From positions 1,884-65,883 of the forward strand of contig JBBAUB010000014.1 of assembly GCA_040398445.1 (NCBI GenBank): a stretch of DNA of 64,000 bases. The letters run 5' to 3'. The notes beneath the pieces were generated by a model, which made no database searches, was not told where the DNA came from, and saw only the letters and a list, made by a program, of their open reading frames with translations. A program made the position numbers and the translations under genes. This document shows, piece by piece, positions 32,411-41,487 of this stretch. Positions within the stretch are counted from its first letter, which is position 1. Every line of letters begins with the position of its first letter. This DNA is from Gemmobacter sp. GTDB lineage: Bacteria; Pseudomonadota; Alphaproteobacteria; Rhodobacterales; Rhodobacteraceae.

Positions 32411-33631
32411 TCAAGCCGACAGGAATTCGTCCCACTTCGAGATCAGCAGGTCGTATTCATCCGGCCACTGGTGCCAGTAGGCGACGTTTGCCGCACGGGT
32501 GGCAAGCGAGCCGCCGTCGCGCAGATCGCCTTCCTTGATGCCGCGCTCTTCCGCGCCGACCCACGGTGCGCCCTCGTACCAGAAGGCGTACTTTTCGGGG
32601 GCCATGACCGCCTTGACCTTGTCGTTGGGCGAATAGTAGCCCTGTTCCGACACGGCGACAGCGGGTCCGCCCGACAGCCAGTAATCGGCATAGGCGGTGA
32701 CGGCATCGAGGTTGGGCGAGGATTTCAGCGCCGAAACGCCGATGGCCCAACCGCGATAGCCGGTCTTCATGGTGGCGTAAGAGCACTGCACGCCCTGCGC
32801 CTTGACGGCCATGACGGCAGGCTGCCACGCGTCGGCAAGGATCATCTCGCCCGAGGCAAGCAGGTTAACGAGTTCGCCGAAATCACCCCAGAGGGCGCGG
32901 AACTGGCCTTCTTTTTTCTTGGAAATCAGGAACTTGGCGGCTTCTTCGATGGCTGCCGCATCCGGGTTGCCGGGGTTCTTCACCTCGAGCAGGCCCAGTT
33001 CGTTCATGGCCATGACGGCTTGACCGAAGGCGATCAGCGGGTCGACGTTCAGGCCGGTCTTGCCCTTGAACTTGGGGTCGAACAGCGAGGACCACATCGA
33101 CGCTTCTTCCGCCGACACGAGGTCGGGGCGATAGCCGATGGAGTCGAAGTTATAGACGGTCGGAACCATGTTCAGCGCGGTCATCGACTCGTCGGTGTAG
33201 ATCTGGCCGACGATCTGCGCCTTGGCGTCCCACTTCGGGTCGGCCTTGAGGAAGCTTTCGCCAACGCCCGTCCAGTTGGTCAACGCCGAGGTGGCGATGG
33301 GCGAGACGAGATCGGTCTGCACGATCGACGGCAGACGCTCGCCGATGGTTTCCCAGCAGTCGTAAGCGGTCGAACCCGACAAGAGTTCGGTCTGGGTGTT
33401 CGGGAAGATGTCGGCTTTGCCCGAGACGGCCTTGACGCCCGAAGCGGTTTTGAAGTCGGCCAGAATACGGTCCTGAACCGTCACCGAAAGACCGACCGTG
33501 CGCAGTTCCTGCGAGGCAAGATCGGCAGCGAAGGCTTGTTGCGAACCAAAGGGAAGGCCTCCGGCGGCAAGAGCGGCCGCACCTGCAGAACCCTGCAAGA
33601 ACCTGCGGCGCGATAGCGACATATCTTTCAT
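32411..33631 (-). CDS. PotD/PotF-like periplasmic solute-binding protein with a Tat signal
   Basis: MKDMSLSRRRFLQGSAGAAALAAGGLPFGSQQAFA followed by an SBP body. AGGAGG RBS. Confidence 0.8.
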   Translation of the reverse strand: MKDMSLSRRRFLQGSAGAAALAAGGLPFGSQQAFAADLASQELRTVGLSVTVQDRILADFKTASGVKAVSGKADIFPNTQTELLSGSTAYDCWETIGERLPSIVQTDLVSPIATSALTNWTGVGESFLKADPKWDAKAQIVGQIYTDESMTALNMVPTVYNFDSIGYRPDLVSAEEASMWSSLFDPKFKGKTGLNVDPLIAFGQAVMAMNELGLLEVKNPGNPDAAAIEEAAKFLISKKKEGQFRALWGDFGELVNLLASGEMILADAWQPAVMAVKAQGVQCSYATMKTGYRGWAIGVSALKSSPNLDAVTAYADYWLSGGPAVAVSEQGYYSPNDKVKAVMAPEKYAFWYEGAPWVGAEERGIKEGDLRDGGSLATRAANVAYWHQWPDEYDLLISKWDEFLSA

Positions 33632-36899: not shown

Positions 36900-37978
36900 A
36901 TCGTTGCCTCGCGGCCGAAAACGATGGCCTGTTCCGGGTTCCAGGTCAGAAGGTAATCTTGCTTCGGTTCGTAAATCTCGGGCGCGCCAAGGCTCAGGTG
37001 GTGCTCCATCTCGACCAGATGGCCTTGGCCGGCGTCGAAGAAGTTCATGATCGACGACCCGAGGTATTCCGACGCGATAAAGGTTGCCTTCAACGCGGGC
37101 CCATCCGATGCCTTGGCCGAAAGCGGAAGCACCTTTACCCGGTCATAACGCACTGCGTAGACATCGCGCTCGGCACGGGTCGCCGACGGGGCGCTGACTG
37201 CACCGAAGCTTCCGGTGAAGTTCCCCTTCGACAACGTGCCGTCGAACAGGTTGTAGCGGTTCAGGAAATGCGCCACGTCCGGCGATGCGGGGCTGTCATA
37301 CACCTCGCCCGGCGTTCCGGTCTGGATGATCGTGCCGCGGTCCAGCACGACAACACGGTCGCCCATCGCCAACGCCTCGGTCTCGCTTCCGGTCACATGC
37401 AGGAAGGTCACGCCAAGCCGCTCGCGGATCGCCCGCAACTCGCTGCGCATGCGCGAGCGCAGGTTTGCATCAAGCGCTCCGAGCGGTTCGTCCAGCAACA
37501 CGAGCTTCGGGCGCATCGCAAGGGTGCGCGCCAAGGCGACGCGCTGGCGCTGGCCGCCCGAAATCTGGTCGACGCCGCGCCCCTCCATGCCCGACAGGCC
37601 TACCAGATCGATCATCTCGGCAGCGCGCCGCTCGACCTCGGAAGCTGCCATCGCGGGTTTGCCGTGGGTCAAACCAAAGCCGACATTCTGCATCACGGTC
37701 AGATGCGGGAACAATGCGAAGTTCTGGAAGACGAACCCGATTCCGCGTTCGTGCGCCTGCACGTTGGTGATATCGCGCCCCTCGAAATAGATGCGCCCCG
37801 CTTCGGGTGCCTCGAATCCCGCGATCACGCGTAAAAGCGTTGTCTTGCCCGAACCCGATGGCCCGAGGAACGACAGGTATTCGTTCGCTCCAACCTCGAG
37901 CGACGCATCGTTCAGTGCGACCAGATCGCCGTAGCGCTTGGTCACGCCTTCCAGTCTGAAGACCGACGTGTCCACCAT
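36896..37978 (-). CDS. PotA-type ABC transporter ATP-binding protein (first ATPase of the operon)
   Basis: [35 protein letters not shown] prefer ATG 37978 (MVDTSVFRLEG) to ATG 38050, which lacks an RBS. Confidence 0.8.
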   Translation of the reverse strand: MVDTSVFRLEGVTKRYGDLVALNDASLEVGANEYLSFLGPSGSGKTTLLRVIAGFEAPEAGRIYFEGRDITNVQAHERGIGFVFQNFALFPHLTVMQNVGFGLTHGKPAMAASEVERRAAEMIDLVGLSGMEGRGVDQISGGQRQRVALARTLAMRPKLVLLDEPLGALDANLRSRMRSELRAIRERLGVTFLHVTGSETEALAMGDRVVVLDRGTIIQTGTPGEVYDSPASPDVAHFLNRYNLFDGTLSKGNFTGSFGAVSAPSATRAERDVYAVRYDRVKVLPLSAKASDGPALKATFIASEYLGSSIMNFFDAGQGHLVEMEHHLSLGAPEIYEPKQDYLLTWNPEQAIVFGREATI

Positions 37979-38085
37979 AACCTCGCCCGAAGTGCGACCT
38001 GCCCTCGTGGGACGGGTCTGATTGTTTTTGGCTTTAACCGAAGCACGCATGACGACGCGCCACTTCGGCTAAAACTGTACTTCGT

Positions 38086-38120
38086 ATAACATCGTTGATT
38101 TTCCAACCTGTCAACTGGTT
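38086..38120 (-). promoter_or_regulatory. Candidate sigma-70 promoter TTGACA-N17-TGTTAT with an overlapping imperfect palindrome AACCAGTTGACAGGTT (GntR-type GT..AC core)
   Basis: On the minus strand, -35 = 38114-38109 and -10 = 38091-38086. The palindrome is at 38105-38120 (12 of 16 positions symmetric). It sits in the 187-bp AT-rich gap 38051-38237. Confidence 0.4.
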
Positions 38121-38237
38121 ATTAAATTACGAATTACCGCTTTTTTGGGCAAGTTATTCGACAATTGGTCCAGTTTTCGCACAGGCTGCGAACCCGCTTC
38201 GTCACGCTTACATGGATATTGCGCACCGAATACGTTT

Positions 38238-39221
38238 TTATTGCGGACTAAGGTACGGCGCAAAAGAACCAGTTTCGTCGATCACCGCGACGATCTTCAT
38301 CCGCGCCAGATACCGCCGCGCCGTGATCGACAGGTGGTAGCGCAGATATTCGCACGCTGAATCAATGGGATGGTGTGTGATCAGGTCCAGCAGGGTCTGG
38401 TACTGCTCGATCGTATCCTCGTCACGCGGCAGACCCAGCAAGATCAGCGCCCGGTCGACCGACGACAGCAGCAACCTGTTGGACCGGATCATTTCGACAA
38501 GCGCCGCGTTTGGTGCCTGCGCAATGCAAAGTTCAAGCAGCGCATCGCCAAGATATTGGGGCGTGATGCCGGGATCGGTGCCGATCCTGTCAAGCAAAGC
38601 TTCGACCTCGGCATAACGGATATGCTGCGCGGCAAGACGCAGGGCAGCCGGTTCCATGATTCCACGCAACTCGAACTTTTCGCTTACCGTGCGGGCGGTG
38701 AGTGGCCCCGCGATCCAGTGCGAGCTGGGGCTTTTGCGCACCAAACCCCGCTCTTGCAGCCGCGCCAGCACATCGCGCACCACCGTGCGGCTGACGCCCA
38801 GATGGTCGGCCAATTCGGTCTCGACGATGCGGAATTCTCCGAAGATCTGGCACGAAGCCACCTCTTCCTCGACCTTGTCGTACACATGCCGCCACGTGCC
38901 GCGCGTCTGCAGGGCCTGATCTACGGCGTGGGGAATCTCAAGCTCCAACTCGCGGATGTCGCGCCGGATCGGGATGACGTCGCCGCCCCCCTTCCCGACC
39001 AGATAGCCCCGCCCGTCGAAACGGTTGATCAACCCTTCGTCCAGCAATTGCCGCAGGGCCGTTTGCACCGGGACGCGGCTTGTCTGCATCACAGCGGCGA
39101 TCGGCCCTTCGAGCAGCACGAACCCGCGCGGCAACACGCCCGACAGGATATTTTCGCGCAACACCCGCCCGATCAACTCGTAGCGCGGTTCCTGCGCCAA
39201 GGGATTGACCGACCGGATCAT
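38238..39221 (-). CDS. GntR/FadR-type regulator with two tandem winged-helix domains plus a C-terminal FCD domain
   Basis: wHTH-1 LPRGFVLLEGPIAAVMQTSRVPVQTALRQLLDEGLINRFDGRGYLV. wHTH-2 IVETELADHLGVSRTVVRDVLARLQERGLVRKSPSSHW. FCD-like EKFELRGIMEPAALRLAA... follows. Confidence 0.75.
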   Translation of the reverse strand: MIRSVNPLAQEPRYELIGRVLRENILSGVLPRGFVLLEGPIAAVMQTSRVPVQTALRQLLDEGLINRFDGRGYLVGKGGGDVIPIRRDIRELELEIPHAVDQALQTRGTWRHVYDKVEEEVASCQIFGEFRIVETELADHLGVSRTVVRDVLARLQERGLVRKSPSSHWIAGPLTARTVSEKFELRGIMEPAALRLAAQHIRYAEVEALLDRIGTDPGITPQYLGDALLELCIAQAPNAALVEMIRSNRLLLSSVDRALILLGLPRDEDTIEQYQTLLDLITHHPIDSACEYLRYHLSITARRYLARMKIVAVIDETGSFAPYLSPQ

Positions 39222-40450
39222 GCAGCAACCCCTGCATTCACGCGGCGCACGAAACGATCCCAGGCACGGGCGGCGTAATTGTATTCGTCCATGACGGTGT
39301 TCCAGATCACGATGCGTCGCGCCCGGTCGATGTAAGGCCCCCCTGCCCGCCGTTCGCCCGTCTTGACCGCCACTTCCCCATCCGGCCCTGCAAGATCACG
39401 CGACGCGGCGGCCCCTTCGTACCAATAGGCCCATTCCTCGGGTGCCAGCCATTCACGCGCCCGCTGCGGATTCGAGATGTAATATCCCTGCCGCGCCATC
39501 ACCGCGCCGGCATAGCCCGAAAGCCACCAGTTCAGGTATTCATAGGCCATGTCGAGTTCCGCACCGCGCAAGTGGCGCGACAGGCTCGCGCCGCCGTGCC
39601 ACGCCCGATACCCTTCGGAAGGTGCCGATTCCACGAAATGCGGCCGCGCCTTGCGCAGCTTGCCATAGACCGGCGACCACATGCTCTGGATCGCCACTGC
39701 GCCGCGTTCGGCCAGATCGGCGGCTTCGACCCCGTCACGCCACGTGGCGCAAAAATAGCCCTCGGTCCGCCGCTCTTCCAGCAGCGCCATCAGCGCGTTG
39801 ATCTCTTCGATGGTCATGTTGCCGATATCGGCAAACTCGATCTCGCCCGTGGCTTCTGCGGCAAGGGCCGCGTCGAAAAACCCGATGGCGGGTTCGTCGA
39901 CCAAGGCGATCCGCCCCTTGGCCCGGCGGTCAAGCAACCAGCCCCAGCTTGGCCGCACGTCGGGCCCTGCCCCAAAGACCCGCGCGTCATAGCCGAAACT
40001 GTCCATGTTGTGGACGGTCGGCAGCATGCTGATATGGCGCGATTGTTTTGGCCCCAGAAAACCGCCGGGCTGCACGTAAAGCTTTTTCGCCGGAGCGTCG
40101 CCACGCCCGCGCCCGGCGTATTTGCTGACCCCGCCAAGCTTCACGAGGTCCGAGATATTGTCCCATTCCGGCACGCGCCCGATGTCGATGGGCTGCAATG
40201 CCCCCCAAAACCACACGATATCGAGGTTGTGGAAACACTGTTCGTAAATGTCATAGCTTTCGGGGGCCATCGCAGCCTGGCGTTGGCAGGTCAAAAAATC
40301 CATCTTCTCGAAAGCGATGTCGAACCCCAGATCAGCCCGCGCTCTGTCGCGCACCGGATCGAGAAGCGTGATCGACGTGCCAAGCACCCGCAACTTGCGC
40401 CGCGATACGATCAGGGGGGTCGCAAGTCCGGATTTCGCGTCGTCTTTCAT
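39218..40450 (-). CDS. Signal-peptide-less (predicted cytoplasmic) paralogue of the PotD/F-like solute-binding protein
   Basis: Its C-terminus APEEWAYWYEG...IVIWNTVMDEYNYAARAWDRFV parallels APEKYAFWYEG...VAYWHQWPDEYDLLISKWDEFL of the SBP at 32411-33631. The N-terminus MKDDAKSGLATPLIVSRRKLRVLGTS aligns to the mature SBP start and lacks an h-region and AxA site. ATGA overlap with the GntR gene. Confidence 0.65.
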   Translation of the reverse strand: MKDDAKSGLATPLIVSRRKLRVLGTSITLLDPVRDRARADLGFDIAFEKMDFLTCQRQAAMAPESYDIYEQCFHNLDIVWFWGALQPIDIGRVPEWDNISDLVKLGGVSKYAGRGRGDAPAKKLYVQPGGFLGPKQSRHISMLPTVHNMDSFGYDARVFGAGPDVRPSWGWLLDRRAKGRIALVDEPAIGFFDAALAAEATGEIEFADIGNMTIEEINALMALLEERRTEGYFCATWRDGVEAADLAERGAVAIQSMWSPVYGKLRKARPHFVESAPSEGYRAWHGGASLSRHLRGAELDMAYEYLNWWLSGYAGAVMARQGYYISNPQRAREWLAPEEWAYWYEGAAASRDLAGPDGEVAVKTGERRAGGPYIDRARRIVIWNTVMDEYNYAARAWDRFVRRVNAGVAA

Positions 40451-40469
40451 CGTCCCTCGCAGCGGGTAA

Positions 40470-40499
40470 GGGCGGGGCAGCTGTCGCTGCCCCCGCCCC
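40470..40499 (-). other. GC-rich 12-13-bp hairpin separating the carboxylase operon from the SBP-like/GntR genes
   Basis: GGGCGGGGCAGC-TGTC-GCTGCCCCCGCCC with one bulge. There is no U-tract on the minus strand. Confidence 0.45.
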
Positions 40500-40515
40500 G
40501 TTTCGGTCGCCGCCT

Positions 40516-41487
40516 TCAGACCAGTGCGGCAGCGACGGCGTCAAGCGTCGCCTTGCGGTCGTGCCGCGCTTGAAGCGCCTGTTCCATCGTCACCTTGACG
40601 AAGCGCGTCGGCGTGTGGGGCTGCAACTGCCCGATCAGGTCCATATCGGCTGACACGACGGTGCCCACCATGAAATAGCCCCCGCCCGACACGGCATCAC
40701 GGTGCAGCACGATGGGTTCGGTACCGCCGGGCACCTGAACCGACCCGTAGGGATAGCAGGCGTCCACGATGTTCGACGGGTCAGACCCCGCGCCAAAGGG
40801 CTGCTCGCGGTCGACGAATTCAAGCGGATGGCCCGCCTTGAACCGGTATCCGATGCGGTCCGCTTCGGGCGCGACCTTCCACGTATCTTCAAAAAAGGTC
40901 TTTCCCGCGCCTTCGGTAATGCGGTGCCAGTACAGGCCCGGCAGCATCCGCAGTTCTGCCGGCATGCCCGGCTTGCGCCGCAAAGCGTCGGGCAGTCTGC
41001 GCCCTTCGGTCGCCCCCTTGCCAGCGCCCAGGGGCAGAACATCTCCTGCCGCCAACTTGCGCCCGTGAAACCCGCCCAGCGCGCCCAGCGTATAGGTCGA
41101 CCGCGAGCCAAGCACGACAGGCACGTCGATCCCGCCCGCGATGGCGATATAGGCCCGCGCTCCGGTTTTCAGGAAGCCGAAGCTCAGGACTTGCCCCTTT
41201 TTCACCCGAAATGCGGTCCATCCGGCTTGCTCTATGCCATCTACGCGGGGCGGCATGTCGGCCCCCGTCACGGCAACCGTGGCATCGGCGGTAAACTCTA
41301 GCTCCGGCCCCAGAAACACCGCTTCCAGCGCGGCATCGCCCGCCGCATTGCCGACAAGCAGGTTCGCCGCCGTCAGCGACAGCGTGTCCATCGCGCCAGA
41401 AACCGGAATTCCGATATGGTAATATCCGGGGCGGCCAAGGTCTTGCACCGTGGTCGAAAGGCCCGGCTTGATGACGTTAATGGCCAT
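40516..41487 (-). CDS. KipA / PxpC / allophanate-hydrolase-subunit-2 family (carboxyltransferase-domain subunit 2)
   Basis: MAINVIKPGLSTTVQDLGRPGYYHIGIPVSGAMD is the hallmark N-terminus of this family. It overlaps the upstream gene by 11 nt. Confidence 0.8.
   Translation of the reverse strand: MAINVIKPGLSTTVQDLGRPGYYHIGIPVSGAMDTLSLTAANLLVGNAAGDAALEAVFLGPELEFTADATVAVTGADMPPRVDGIEQAGWTAFRVKKGQVLSFGFLKTGARAYIAIAGGIDVPVVLGSRSTYTLGALGGFHGRKLAAGDVLPLGAGKGATEGRRLPDALRRKPGMPAELRMLPGLYWHRITEGAGKTFFEDTWKVAPEADRIGYRFKAGHPLEFVDREQPFGAGSDPSNIVDACYPYGSVQVPGGTEPIVLHRDAVSGGGYFMVGTVVSADMDLIGQLQPHTPTRFVKVTMEQALQARHDRKATLDAVAAALV

Follow-up and report, generated by a model that had tools for sequence, protein, structure and literature searches.

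A signal-less PotD-type binding-protein homologue coupled to a double-winged-helix GntR protein: a candidate two-protein repressor in Gemmobacter sp.

The gene pair and its two proteins

The window analysed here, a stretch of 64,000 nucleotides (nt) from Gemmobacter sp. (contig JBBAUB010000014.1), carries on its minus strand two overlapping genes whose products are the subject of this report. The first encodes SBPL, as we call a signal-less protein of 410 amino acids (aa) that is homologous to solute-binding proteins (SBPs) and has the PotF/PotD fold; the second encodes a GntR regulator of 327 aa in which two winged helix-turn-helix units (wHTH1 and wHTH2) precede the FCD domain. In transcriptional order, hyuB-hyuA, LamB/YcsF, biotin carboxylase, CT_C_D and CT_A_B genes lead up to the pair, and behind it a 187-nt AT-rich gap is followed by genes for an ABC ATPase, two permeases, two SDRs, a Tat-exported SBP, a second ATPase and an amidase (the ABC/SDR/amidase operon), all on the same strand. 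Coordinates are collected in Table 1; every item listed in a preliminary description of this DNA was found where it had been placed.

SBPL is homologous to the Tat-exported SBP of the downstream operon (27% identity, E 5e-40), and its residue 15 pairs with residue 38 of that protein, so that it begins at about the start of the mature SBP, in agreement with the preliminary description. The operon SBP is recognized by the Tat-signal model TIGR01409 with 24.3 bits (cut-off 16.7). For SBPL, signal searches gave neither a Tat nor a Sec match, and its N-terminus has no hydrophobic stretch, again as first described; the export signal (Sec, Tat or lipoprotein) that is a trait of cluster D SBPs is absent. 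A signal peptide or an upstream in-frame start would have spoken against a cytoplasmic protein, and the check for both found neither: the 30 codons between the in-frame stop at 40543-40541 and the ATG of SBPL contain no ATG, GTG or TTG and encode basic, hydrophilic residues. SBPL has many homologues, and the signal-less N-terminus is common to all 120 of the 120 compared (65-91% identity; ~410 aa). Because SBPL has no signal and no upstream start, and because it occurs elsewhere as a C-terminal fusion to a DNA-binding protein (see below), it is very probably cytoplasmic.

No Pfam family matches SBPL, and a sequence search against the PDB returned only marginal PotF matches (E 0.17). Its AlphaFold model (pLDDT 89.8, pTM 0.88) and the Foldseek search with it place the protein among the type II bilobed binding proteins, the best matches being PotF, PotD, SpuD/E and YdcS (E ~1e-17, TM-score on the target 0.73-0.79, 13-16% identity). 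The SBPL family has 33 invariant columns, many of them Trp, Asp or Asn, which are shared with exported relatives. In public databases, five of these signal-less proteins (P0024, P0031, P0091, P0104 and P0116) go by the names “signal peptide prediction” or [quoted passage not shown], both of which look like annotation artefacts for the SBPL clade. In a metagenome-assembled genome of Cypionkella sp. (L024:5771-7001), SBPL matches as two pieces in different frames, either through an assembly frameshift (the names of its contigs suggest nanopore sequencing) or because the gene is a pseudogene.

For the regulator, Pfam reports PF00392 (E 9e-19) in two stretches, the best at residues 14-75 and the second at ~110-170, and PF07729 (FCD) at 183-297 with a marginal 26.4 bits (cut-off 24.3); matches to Crp/MarR/TrmB-type HTH families fall at residues 134-167. 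The AlphaFold model (pLDDT 86.7, pTM 0.62) agrees in showing two complete winged-helix units and then six helices. wHTH1 (13-75) is built from helices 13-27, 38-45 and 49-61 and strands 34-36, 65-68 and 72-75; a linker (76-97) and a 30-residue helix lead into wHTH2, which ends at 171, and the FCD helices (176-311) are followed by a short C-terminal strand. The two GntR-type units ahead of an FCD domain that had been proposed from the letters are therefore present, and the Pfam check, in which a single HTH would have spoken against the proposal, found two. An N-terminal GntR wHTH with a six-helix FCD domain places the protein with the FadR/VanR regulators, for which one DNA-binding domain per chain is the norm; here there are two. 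PDB sequence and Foldseek matches (Atu1419 of the VanR group, PmiR, TM0439) cover wHTH2 and FCD only, wHTH2 corresponding to the DNA-binding domain in Atu1419 and in PmiR. In these PDB searches the extra N-terminal wHTH was not covered by any solved GntR structure, the alignments taking in at most ~230 of the 327 residues.

The wHTH units are the most conserved parts of the regulator, with 51-56% identity to fusion relatives (see below) as against 29-30% for the FCD domain, which argues that both units are under selection. A recent internal duplication as the source of wHTH1 and wHTH2 was considered and rejected, since BLASTP finds no similarity between the two. GntR homologues are numerous and of a fixed length of ~327 aa, and the C-terminal tail is conserved in unfused, fused and SBPL-less tandem GntRs alike.

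The FCD domain of the window clade is peculiar in another respect. Alignment to PmiR and to distant relatives puts A227, L229, Y274 and H296 at the canonical D/H/H/H positions. Among 48 unfused relatives, the same positions hold Ala in 40, a residue other than His in 47, Tyr in 47 and His in 41, while D/H/H/H is kept in 20-22 of 23 fusion proteins and in the SBPL-less tandem GntRs. Judged from these alignments, the usual metal/effector site of FCD is gone in the window clade, three of the four canonical ligands having been lost, and this fits a transfer of sensing to SBPL. A decay of FCD across the whole family was rejected: fusions and distant tandem GntRs keep D/H/H/H, and only the translationally coupled clade has lost it.

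Table 1. Positions of the gene pair, its domains and associated elements in the window
Feature	Coordinates	Strand	Basis or remark
SBPL, 410-aa signal-less PotF/PotD-fold SBP homologue	39218..40450	-	Open reading frame; proposed cytoplasmic ligand sensor
Tandem-wHTH GntR/FCD regulator, 327 aa	38238..39221	-	Open reading frame and Pfam
ATGA stop/start overlap, SBPL/GntR	39218..39221	-	Read in sequence; translational coupling
wHTH1, extra N-terminal winged helix, residues 13-75	38997..39185	-	PF00392, best stretch 14-75
wHTH2, canonical winged helix before FCD, residues 98-172	38706..38930	-	Second PF00392 stretch
Six-helix FCD, residues 176-311, metal site degenerate	38289..38696	-	PF07729 and model
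Conserved C-terminal tail of GntR (ARMKIVAV...FAPYL)	38241..38288	-	
Box 1, partly palindromic, directly 3' of GntR stop	38212..38236	-	Conservation
Conserved promoter/operator block	38070..38130	-	Information profile, 22 loci
GC-rich hairpin, CT_A_B (PxpC-like)/SBPL junction	40470..40499	-	
Tat-exported SBP of downstream ABC importer, 406 aa, distant paralogue	32411..33631	-	

Conservation, fusion and descent of the pair

The overlap of the SBPL stop with the GntR start, which the preliminary description had read as ATGA at 39218-39221, is kept as RTGA in 26 of 26 related loci (GntR identity 52-100%), with a GAGG-like tract upstream. In all 23 complete genome loci, with GntR identities of 52-95%, SBPL lies directly 5' of the GntR gene and the ABC operon lies 3' of it; these loci span Paracoccaceae, Ruegeria, Roseiarcus and an uncultured alphaproteobacterium. 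The compared loci come from related genomes, so that 26/26 and similar counts do not stand for as many independent events; what counts as independent evidence is the three gene arrangements together with the fusion lineage, described below. The genes 5' of the pair vary and may be carboxylase genes, hyuA or a LysR gene: in L002, SBPL directly follows HyuA, and in Paracoccus sp. TOH the pair keeps its position although neither Hyu nor Pxp genes stand immediately 5' of it. In two more distant genomes, G112 and G136 (GntR identity 28-35%), CT_A_B and SBPL are read in this order from one strand, and the tandem GntR gene abuts SBPL and converges with it from the other; the GntR gene is in turn divergent from the ABC operon. 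Adjacency of SBPL and GntR is thus kept in three arrangements, namely overlapping and co-directional, convergent, and fused.

Between CT_A_B and SBPL lie 65 nt in the window and 9 nt in G136. The junction in the window holds a hairpin (-42 kcal/mol, z -3.3) with no T-run behind it, and hairpins with differing stem sequence stand at the same position in related loci (L014-L033). The hairpin may be a partial terminator, or an mRNA stabilising or processing element that separates the lactamase/carboxylase operon from the regulator pair. As no promoter was found between CT_A_B and SBPL, transcription of SBPL-gntR may come from the upstream operon by read-through.

How strictly the two proteins go together was assessed across 401 sampled genomes of alphaproteobacteria. 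Of these, 47 have SBP homologues at E<=1e-60, which are signal-less in only four genomes: the window's own genome, G112, G136 and G083. All four of these have a GntR of the regulator's family near SBPL, adjacent in three and ~5 kb away in G083, where the relative has a single wHTH. In the 1.5-kb flanks of the 26 exported SBP homologues examined, no GntR of this family was found. Conversely, GntR relatives are present in 8 genomes besides the window's own, and 7 of the 8 span both wHTH units at 28-40% identity, the one in G083 consisting of wHTH2 and FCD only. Three of the genomes with a tandem GntR (G270, G344, G386) have no SBPL match at E<=1e-10, and in a fourth (G381) the only SBP homologue bears a signal and lies on another contig. 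The tandem GntRs of these four (L042, L044, L045 and L046 in G381, G386, G270 and G344, respectively) are 28-34% identical to the regulator, end in the same ...PYL tail, have their FCD His ligands intact, and adjoin SDR, DAO-type oxidase, enolase-superfamily or Ldh_2 genes. The idea that the tandem wHTH is an adaptation to SBPL was therefore rejected, tandem GntRs also standing beside ordinary catabolic enzymes where SBPL is absent. It follows that the double wHTH is a trait of the wider family, and that the partnership with SBPL is a specialisation within it. The preliminary description had named both features as atypical; both are present, but they do not form a joint trait, since the tandem wHTH occurs without SBPL. 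Double-wHTH GntRs thus constitute a family of their own, as yet uncharacterised.

Searching 1.84 billion representative sequences with SBPL revealed natural fusions of the two proteins. In a protein of 753 aa, the C-terminal half matches SBPL at 44% identity and the N-terminal 345 residues align with the entire tandem-wHTH GntR, including its conserved tail; a basic linker follows the tail, and the SBPL part then starts from the first beta-strand. Counted as clusters at 90% identity, ~28 such fusions of 739-806 aa are found in other alphaproteobacteria, each with tandem-wHTH GntR, FCD, basic linker and signal-less SBPL. Their reading frames are intact on three independent contigs, one of them 1.36 Mb long. 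The three fusion loci contain hyuB/hyuA, an M20 peptidase and a ribose-type ABC system, and none of them has a PotD-type transporter near the fusion gene; in the window, an ABC importer lies downstream of SBPL and has its own Tat-SBP. The fusions are classic Rosetta-stone evidence that the window proteins act together, and they indicate that the SBPL domain works inside the cell, seemingly without a cognate importer. In the fusion lineage, both the FCD and the SBPL domain may bind something.

A tree of 75 SBP cores places all fusions, and all signal-less proteins but one, in a single clade (SH-aLRT 95) that branches from within the Tat-signal proteins, and inside this clade the fusions form a monophyletic group with support 100. 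The operon SBP and a third, Tat-exported paralogue of the same genome lie in other deep clades, apart from SBPL. SBPL had been presented as a paralogue of the operon's SBP: the homology stands, but a recent duplication of that SBP does not, given 27% identity and separate deep clades. The third paralogue lies outside the window (G000:C21:27419-28567, L010), is 36% identical to SBPL and has a clear Tat signal (SRRSVLKGGAAAFAASALPAPMIWAQ), so that the genome has two exported members and one cytoplasmic member.

The nearest exported relatives of SBPL are Tat-signal SBPs with 44-48% identity. Three of these sister-clade proteins were checked, and directly 3' of each lies a signalling gene. In L076:687-4791 and L079:3176-7380 the exported SBP is followed by a full hybrid histidine kinase, in L076 also by a second kinase and an RR-HD-GYP gene; in L078:6001-8495 the following gene is cut by the contig end and gives a weak HAMP match only, at the matching position. 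These exported SBPs look like periplasmic co-sensors rather than transport SBPs, and because this sister clade is kinase-adjacent, the ancestry of SBPL seems to lie in a signalling and not in a transport branch of the SBPs.

Promoter and operator DNA

The gap between the regulator gene and the ABC/SDR/amidase operon (38051-38237) had been described as an AT-rich promoter region, and its GC fraction is indeed 0.52 as against ~0.63 in the flanks. From the GntR stop to the ATPase start, the DNA is unalignable across loci except for two elements, box 1 and a block of ~60 nt. Box 1 is 25 nt long, with the family consensus AAyGaAtattG..at.CA.ta.tCATTt. The block comprises an UP-like element (AAATTTAAT), a -35 TTGACA (38114-38109), AAAAT within a 17-nt spacer, a -10 TGTTAT (38091-38086) and box 2 (TTATACGAAGTACAGTTT, 38089-38072), which contains TAC-N3-GTA and overlaps the -10 and the predicted +1. 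Box 2 is present in the window as a single copy (0 expected by chance), with no further copies, and extra matches to the degenerate box-1 pattern in the window are at chance level.

The promoter call rests on conservation. A simple promoter scanner reported no promoter in 37900-40700, and its rule needs an A at position 2 of the -10, which TGTTAT lacks. The spacing of the elements is nearly constant: the -35 stands 120-124 nt past the GntR stop in 22 of 24 loci, the outliers at 109 and 133 being about one helical turn off, and box 1 keeps a fixed position ~122 nt upstream of the -35. Two distant loci (L035, L036) have two near-identical 30-bp boxes 116-117 nt apart. Short inverted repeats, which could be chance, are seen in the spacer (38092-38108) and in those of L004, L014, L015, L022 and L028; their arms vary but stay complementary around the conserved AAAAT, as in AGGTGG..CCACCT and ACATGA..TCATGT.

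An operator over the -10 and +1 indicates repression, and it is likely, from the position and conservation of these elements, that the GntR protein represses the ABC/SDR/amidase promoter through box 2. Since the spacing of the two boxes is fixed and in phase, both might be held at once, in the way known for tetrameric Atu1419 (PMC7797058); looping between box 2 and box 1 is a tentative suggestion that we would hold with more doubt than belief.

A possible working principle, its rivals and known systems

Together, these comparisons of sequences and models suggest that the adjacent ABC/SDR/amidase operon is repressed by SBPL and the tandem-wHTH GntR acting jointly, as a two-protein repressor that responds to a ligand, a reading that we consider on balance the probable one. 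It is likely that SBPL works with the GntR protein, probably as a complex; that SBPL is the effector sensor, and that its ligand-induced closure releases the repressor, is somewhat less firm but still favoured. The preliminary description had supposed that a binding protein recruited to the cytoplasm works, as co-sensor or enzyme, with a double-HTH regulator, and the invariant coupling, the three arrangements and the fusion lineage lend support to such a partnership. A sensor is favoured over an enzyme because the fusion loci have no PotD-type transporter and because the sister SBPs stand beside kinase or HAMP genes.

In decreasing order of confidence, the steps would be operator block, docking and closure of SBPL, relay through FCD, and a loop to box 1. 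As a dimer or higher oligomer, the GntR protein would present four or more winged helices and could bind the ~60-bp block over -35, -10 and +1, thereby blocking transcription of the operon. SBPL would dock on the regulator, probably on the FCD/C-terminal side, which is its tether point in the fusions, and would close on a small molecule of the pathway by a Venus-flytrap motion; the change would be relayed to the regulator and the operator released. In the window clade, FCD would then serve mainly for dimerisation and relay, with sensing outsourced to SBPL. Box 1 may be bound simultaneously, in which case the DNA would form a repression loop like that of tetrameric Atu1419. Candidate ligands, to judge by the neighbouring genes for a hydantoinase-type lactamase, an amidase and a PotD-type importer, are lactam, amide or amine substrates or intermediates. 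A more specific version, plausible but falling somewhat short of an even chance, is a stoichiometric heteromeric repressor in which a PotD-type SBPL replaces the decayed FCD pocket and two operators ~137 bp apart are looped by the complex with its four or more winged helices; it would represent a new GntR subfamily, with a sensor arisen from the signalling branch of SBPs. In that proposed subfamily, the sensor/binding-protein partner would be separate here and fused in Roseiarcus-type bacteria.

Several observations weigh against a two-protein repressor. Tandem GntRs without an SBPL partner exist. The FCD metal site is intact in the fusion lineage, so that FCD there may itself sense a ligand, and gene fusion speaks for functional linkage, not necessarily for a sensor role; enzyme-repressor fusions exist, for example PutA and BirA. 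In G112 and G136, SBPL is transcriptionally tied to the CT_A_B gene and not to the GntR gene. In Tepidamorphus gemmatus (L077:8001-9290), a signal-less SBPL (56%) stands at the tail of an SDR/SBP/ATPase/amidase/CE4/CobW operon with no GntR gene adjoining. As for the DNA, the operator assignment comes from conservation only, and another factor could bind the boxes; the looping idea comes from spacing among closely related genomes. The Tepidamorphus locus may be rearranged; a truncated SBP_bac_5 gene and a transposase lie 3' of its SBPL.

Some of the same observations would be expected if SBPL were an enzyme or accessory subunit of the lactam-opening hydantoinase/biotin-carboxylase module or of the amidase branch, its link with GntR being an ordinary operon neighbourhood or an enzyme-repressor fusion. 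We regard this as unlikely, although it is the best of the alternatives. SBPL directly follows CT_A_B in the window and in G112 and G136, where the GntR gene is on the other strand, and HyuA in L002; HyuA/HyuB adjoin the fusion gene at every locus examined, and the Tepidamorphus protein ends an amidase/CE4/CobW operon. However, family and structure searches gave no catalytic match, the best structural matches all being transport or sensing SBPs. A hairpin parts SBPL from CT_A_B in most loci, while the GntR junction is an invariant 4-nt overlap; Paracoccus sp. TOH keeps the pair without Hyu or Pxp genes directly upstream; and the three sister-clade relatives adjoin kinase genes, not enzyme genes.

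A little more unlikely still is that the GntR protein senses alone through its FCD domain, like regulators of the FadR/VanR type, and that SBPL is an independent cytoplasmic protein for binding, buffering or delivering the imported substrate. The SBPL-less tandem GntRs beside SDR, DAO and enolase-type genes do keep their FCD metal ligands, the FCD match of the regulator is above the Pfam cut-off, and FadR needs no metal. This explanation leaves the fusion lineage, the invariant coupling and the adjacency kept after inversion unaccounted for, and it sits poorly with the loss of three of the four canonical ligand/metal residues from the FCD of the window clade. Finally, export of SBPL after all, non-classically or piggy-back on the Tat-SBP, as a second periplasmic receptor for the ABC importer, has in its favour the homology to the operon's Tat-SBP and an importer with two ATPase genes and an odd gene order, but it is highly improbable given 120 of 120 close homologues without a signal, an SBPL domain that is also fused behind a DNA-binding regulator, fusion loci without matching permeases, and a signal-less state that is an old trait of the whole clade.

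A ligand-responsive SBPL-GntR repressor, if true, would give a function to several hundred proteins, some of which are now annotated as “signal peptide prediction”. It would also draw attention to GntR proteins with two DNA-binding domains in each chain, an architecture not characterised so far. With its compact promoter/operator, the pair is a possible biosensor for a substrate, probably a lactam, amide or amine, whose gene cluster is widespread among alphaproteobacteria, and the identity of the SBPL ligand would help to assign the neighbouring pathway. Full-text literature searches, which left most subscription journals outside their coverage, returned no description of tandem-wHTH GntRs or of a GntR with a PotD-type or cytoplasmic SBP partner.

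Binding-protein folds are known to serve as sensors in three settings: fused to regulators as effector domains (LysR, LacI, AraR), alongside kinases in the periplasm, and, paired with RNA-binding antiterminators, in the cytoplasm (AmiC-AmiR and NasS-NasT). The AraR subfamily joins a GntR-type wHTH to a type I, LacI/GalR-like periplasmic-binding-protein (PBP) effector domain in one chain, where it replaces FCD. The fusion relatives resemble AraR in linking a wHTH to a PBP-like domain; here, however, the domain is of the type II, PotD-like class and comes in addition to a complete FCD, which it follows in the fusions, while in the window it is encoded as a protein of its own, so that the regulator falls outside the AraR subfamily. 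TorT-TorS and LuxP-LuxQ, in which periplasmic SBPs are co-sensors of membrane histidine kinases, recall the three nearest exported relatives of SBPL that lie directly 5' of kinase or HAMP genes, whereas SBPL itself is cytoplasmic and paired with a one-component DNA-binding regulator.

For the regulator, the VanR-group proteins Atu1419, PmiR and TM0439 are the best match, over residues ~105-310 (one wHTH and the six-helix FCD). They have one wHTH per chain, metal and effector in FCD, and no binding-protein partner; the window regulator differs in its extra N-terminal wHTH, its conserved C-terminal tail and the loss of three of the four metal ligands. As a tetramer, Atu1419 of Agrobacterium fabrum loops the DNA between two palindromes that lie 109-190 bp apart and so bridges them (PMC7797058), a likeness to the two boxes at fixed spacing found here.

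The closest working principle is that of NasS-NasT (Paracoccus denitrificans, Azotobacter) and AmiC-AmiR (Pseudomonas aeruginosa), where a signal-less homologue of periplasmic binding proteins is the cytoplasmic sensor for a separate, co-transcribed regulator and the ligand changes the complex (PMC3795266); for the pair described here, the corresponding complex is a putative one. SBPL shares with these sensors the place beside its regulator and, by the 4-nt overlap, co-expression with it, and AmiC-AmiR, too, controls an amidase operon. The differences lie in both partners. The sensor is of the PotD/PotF type, as against NrtA-type for NasS and LivJ-type for AmiC, and the regulator, a GntR/FCD protein that carries two winged helices and binds DNA, stands in place of the ANTAR RNA-binding antiterminator that defines those pairs and is sequestered by its sensor.

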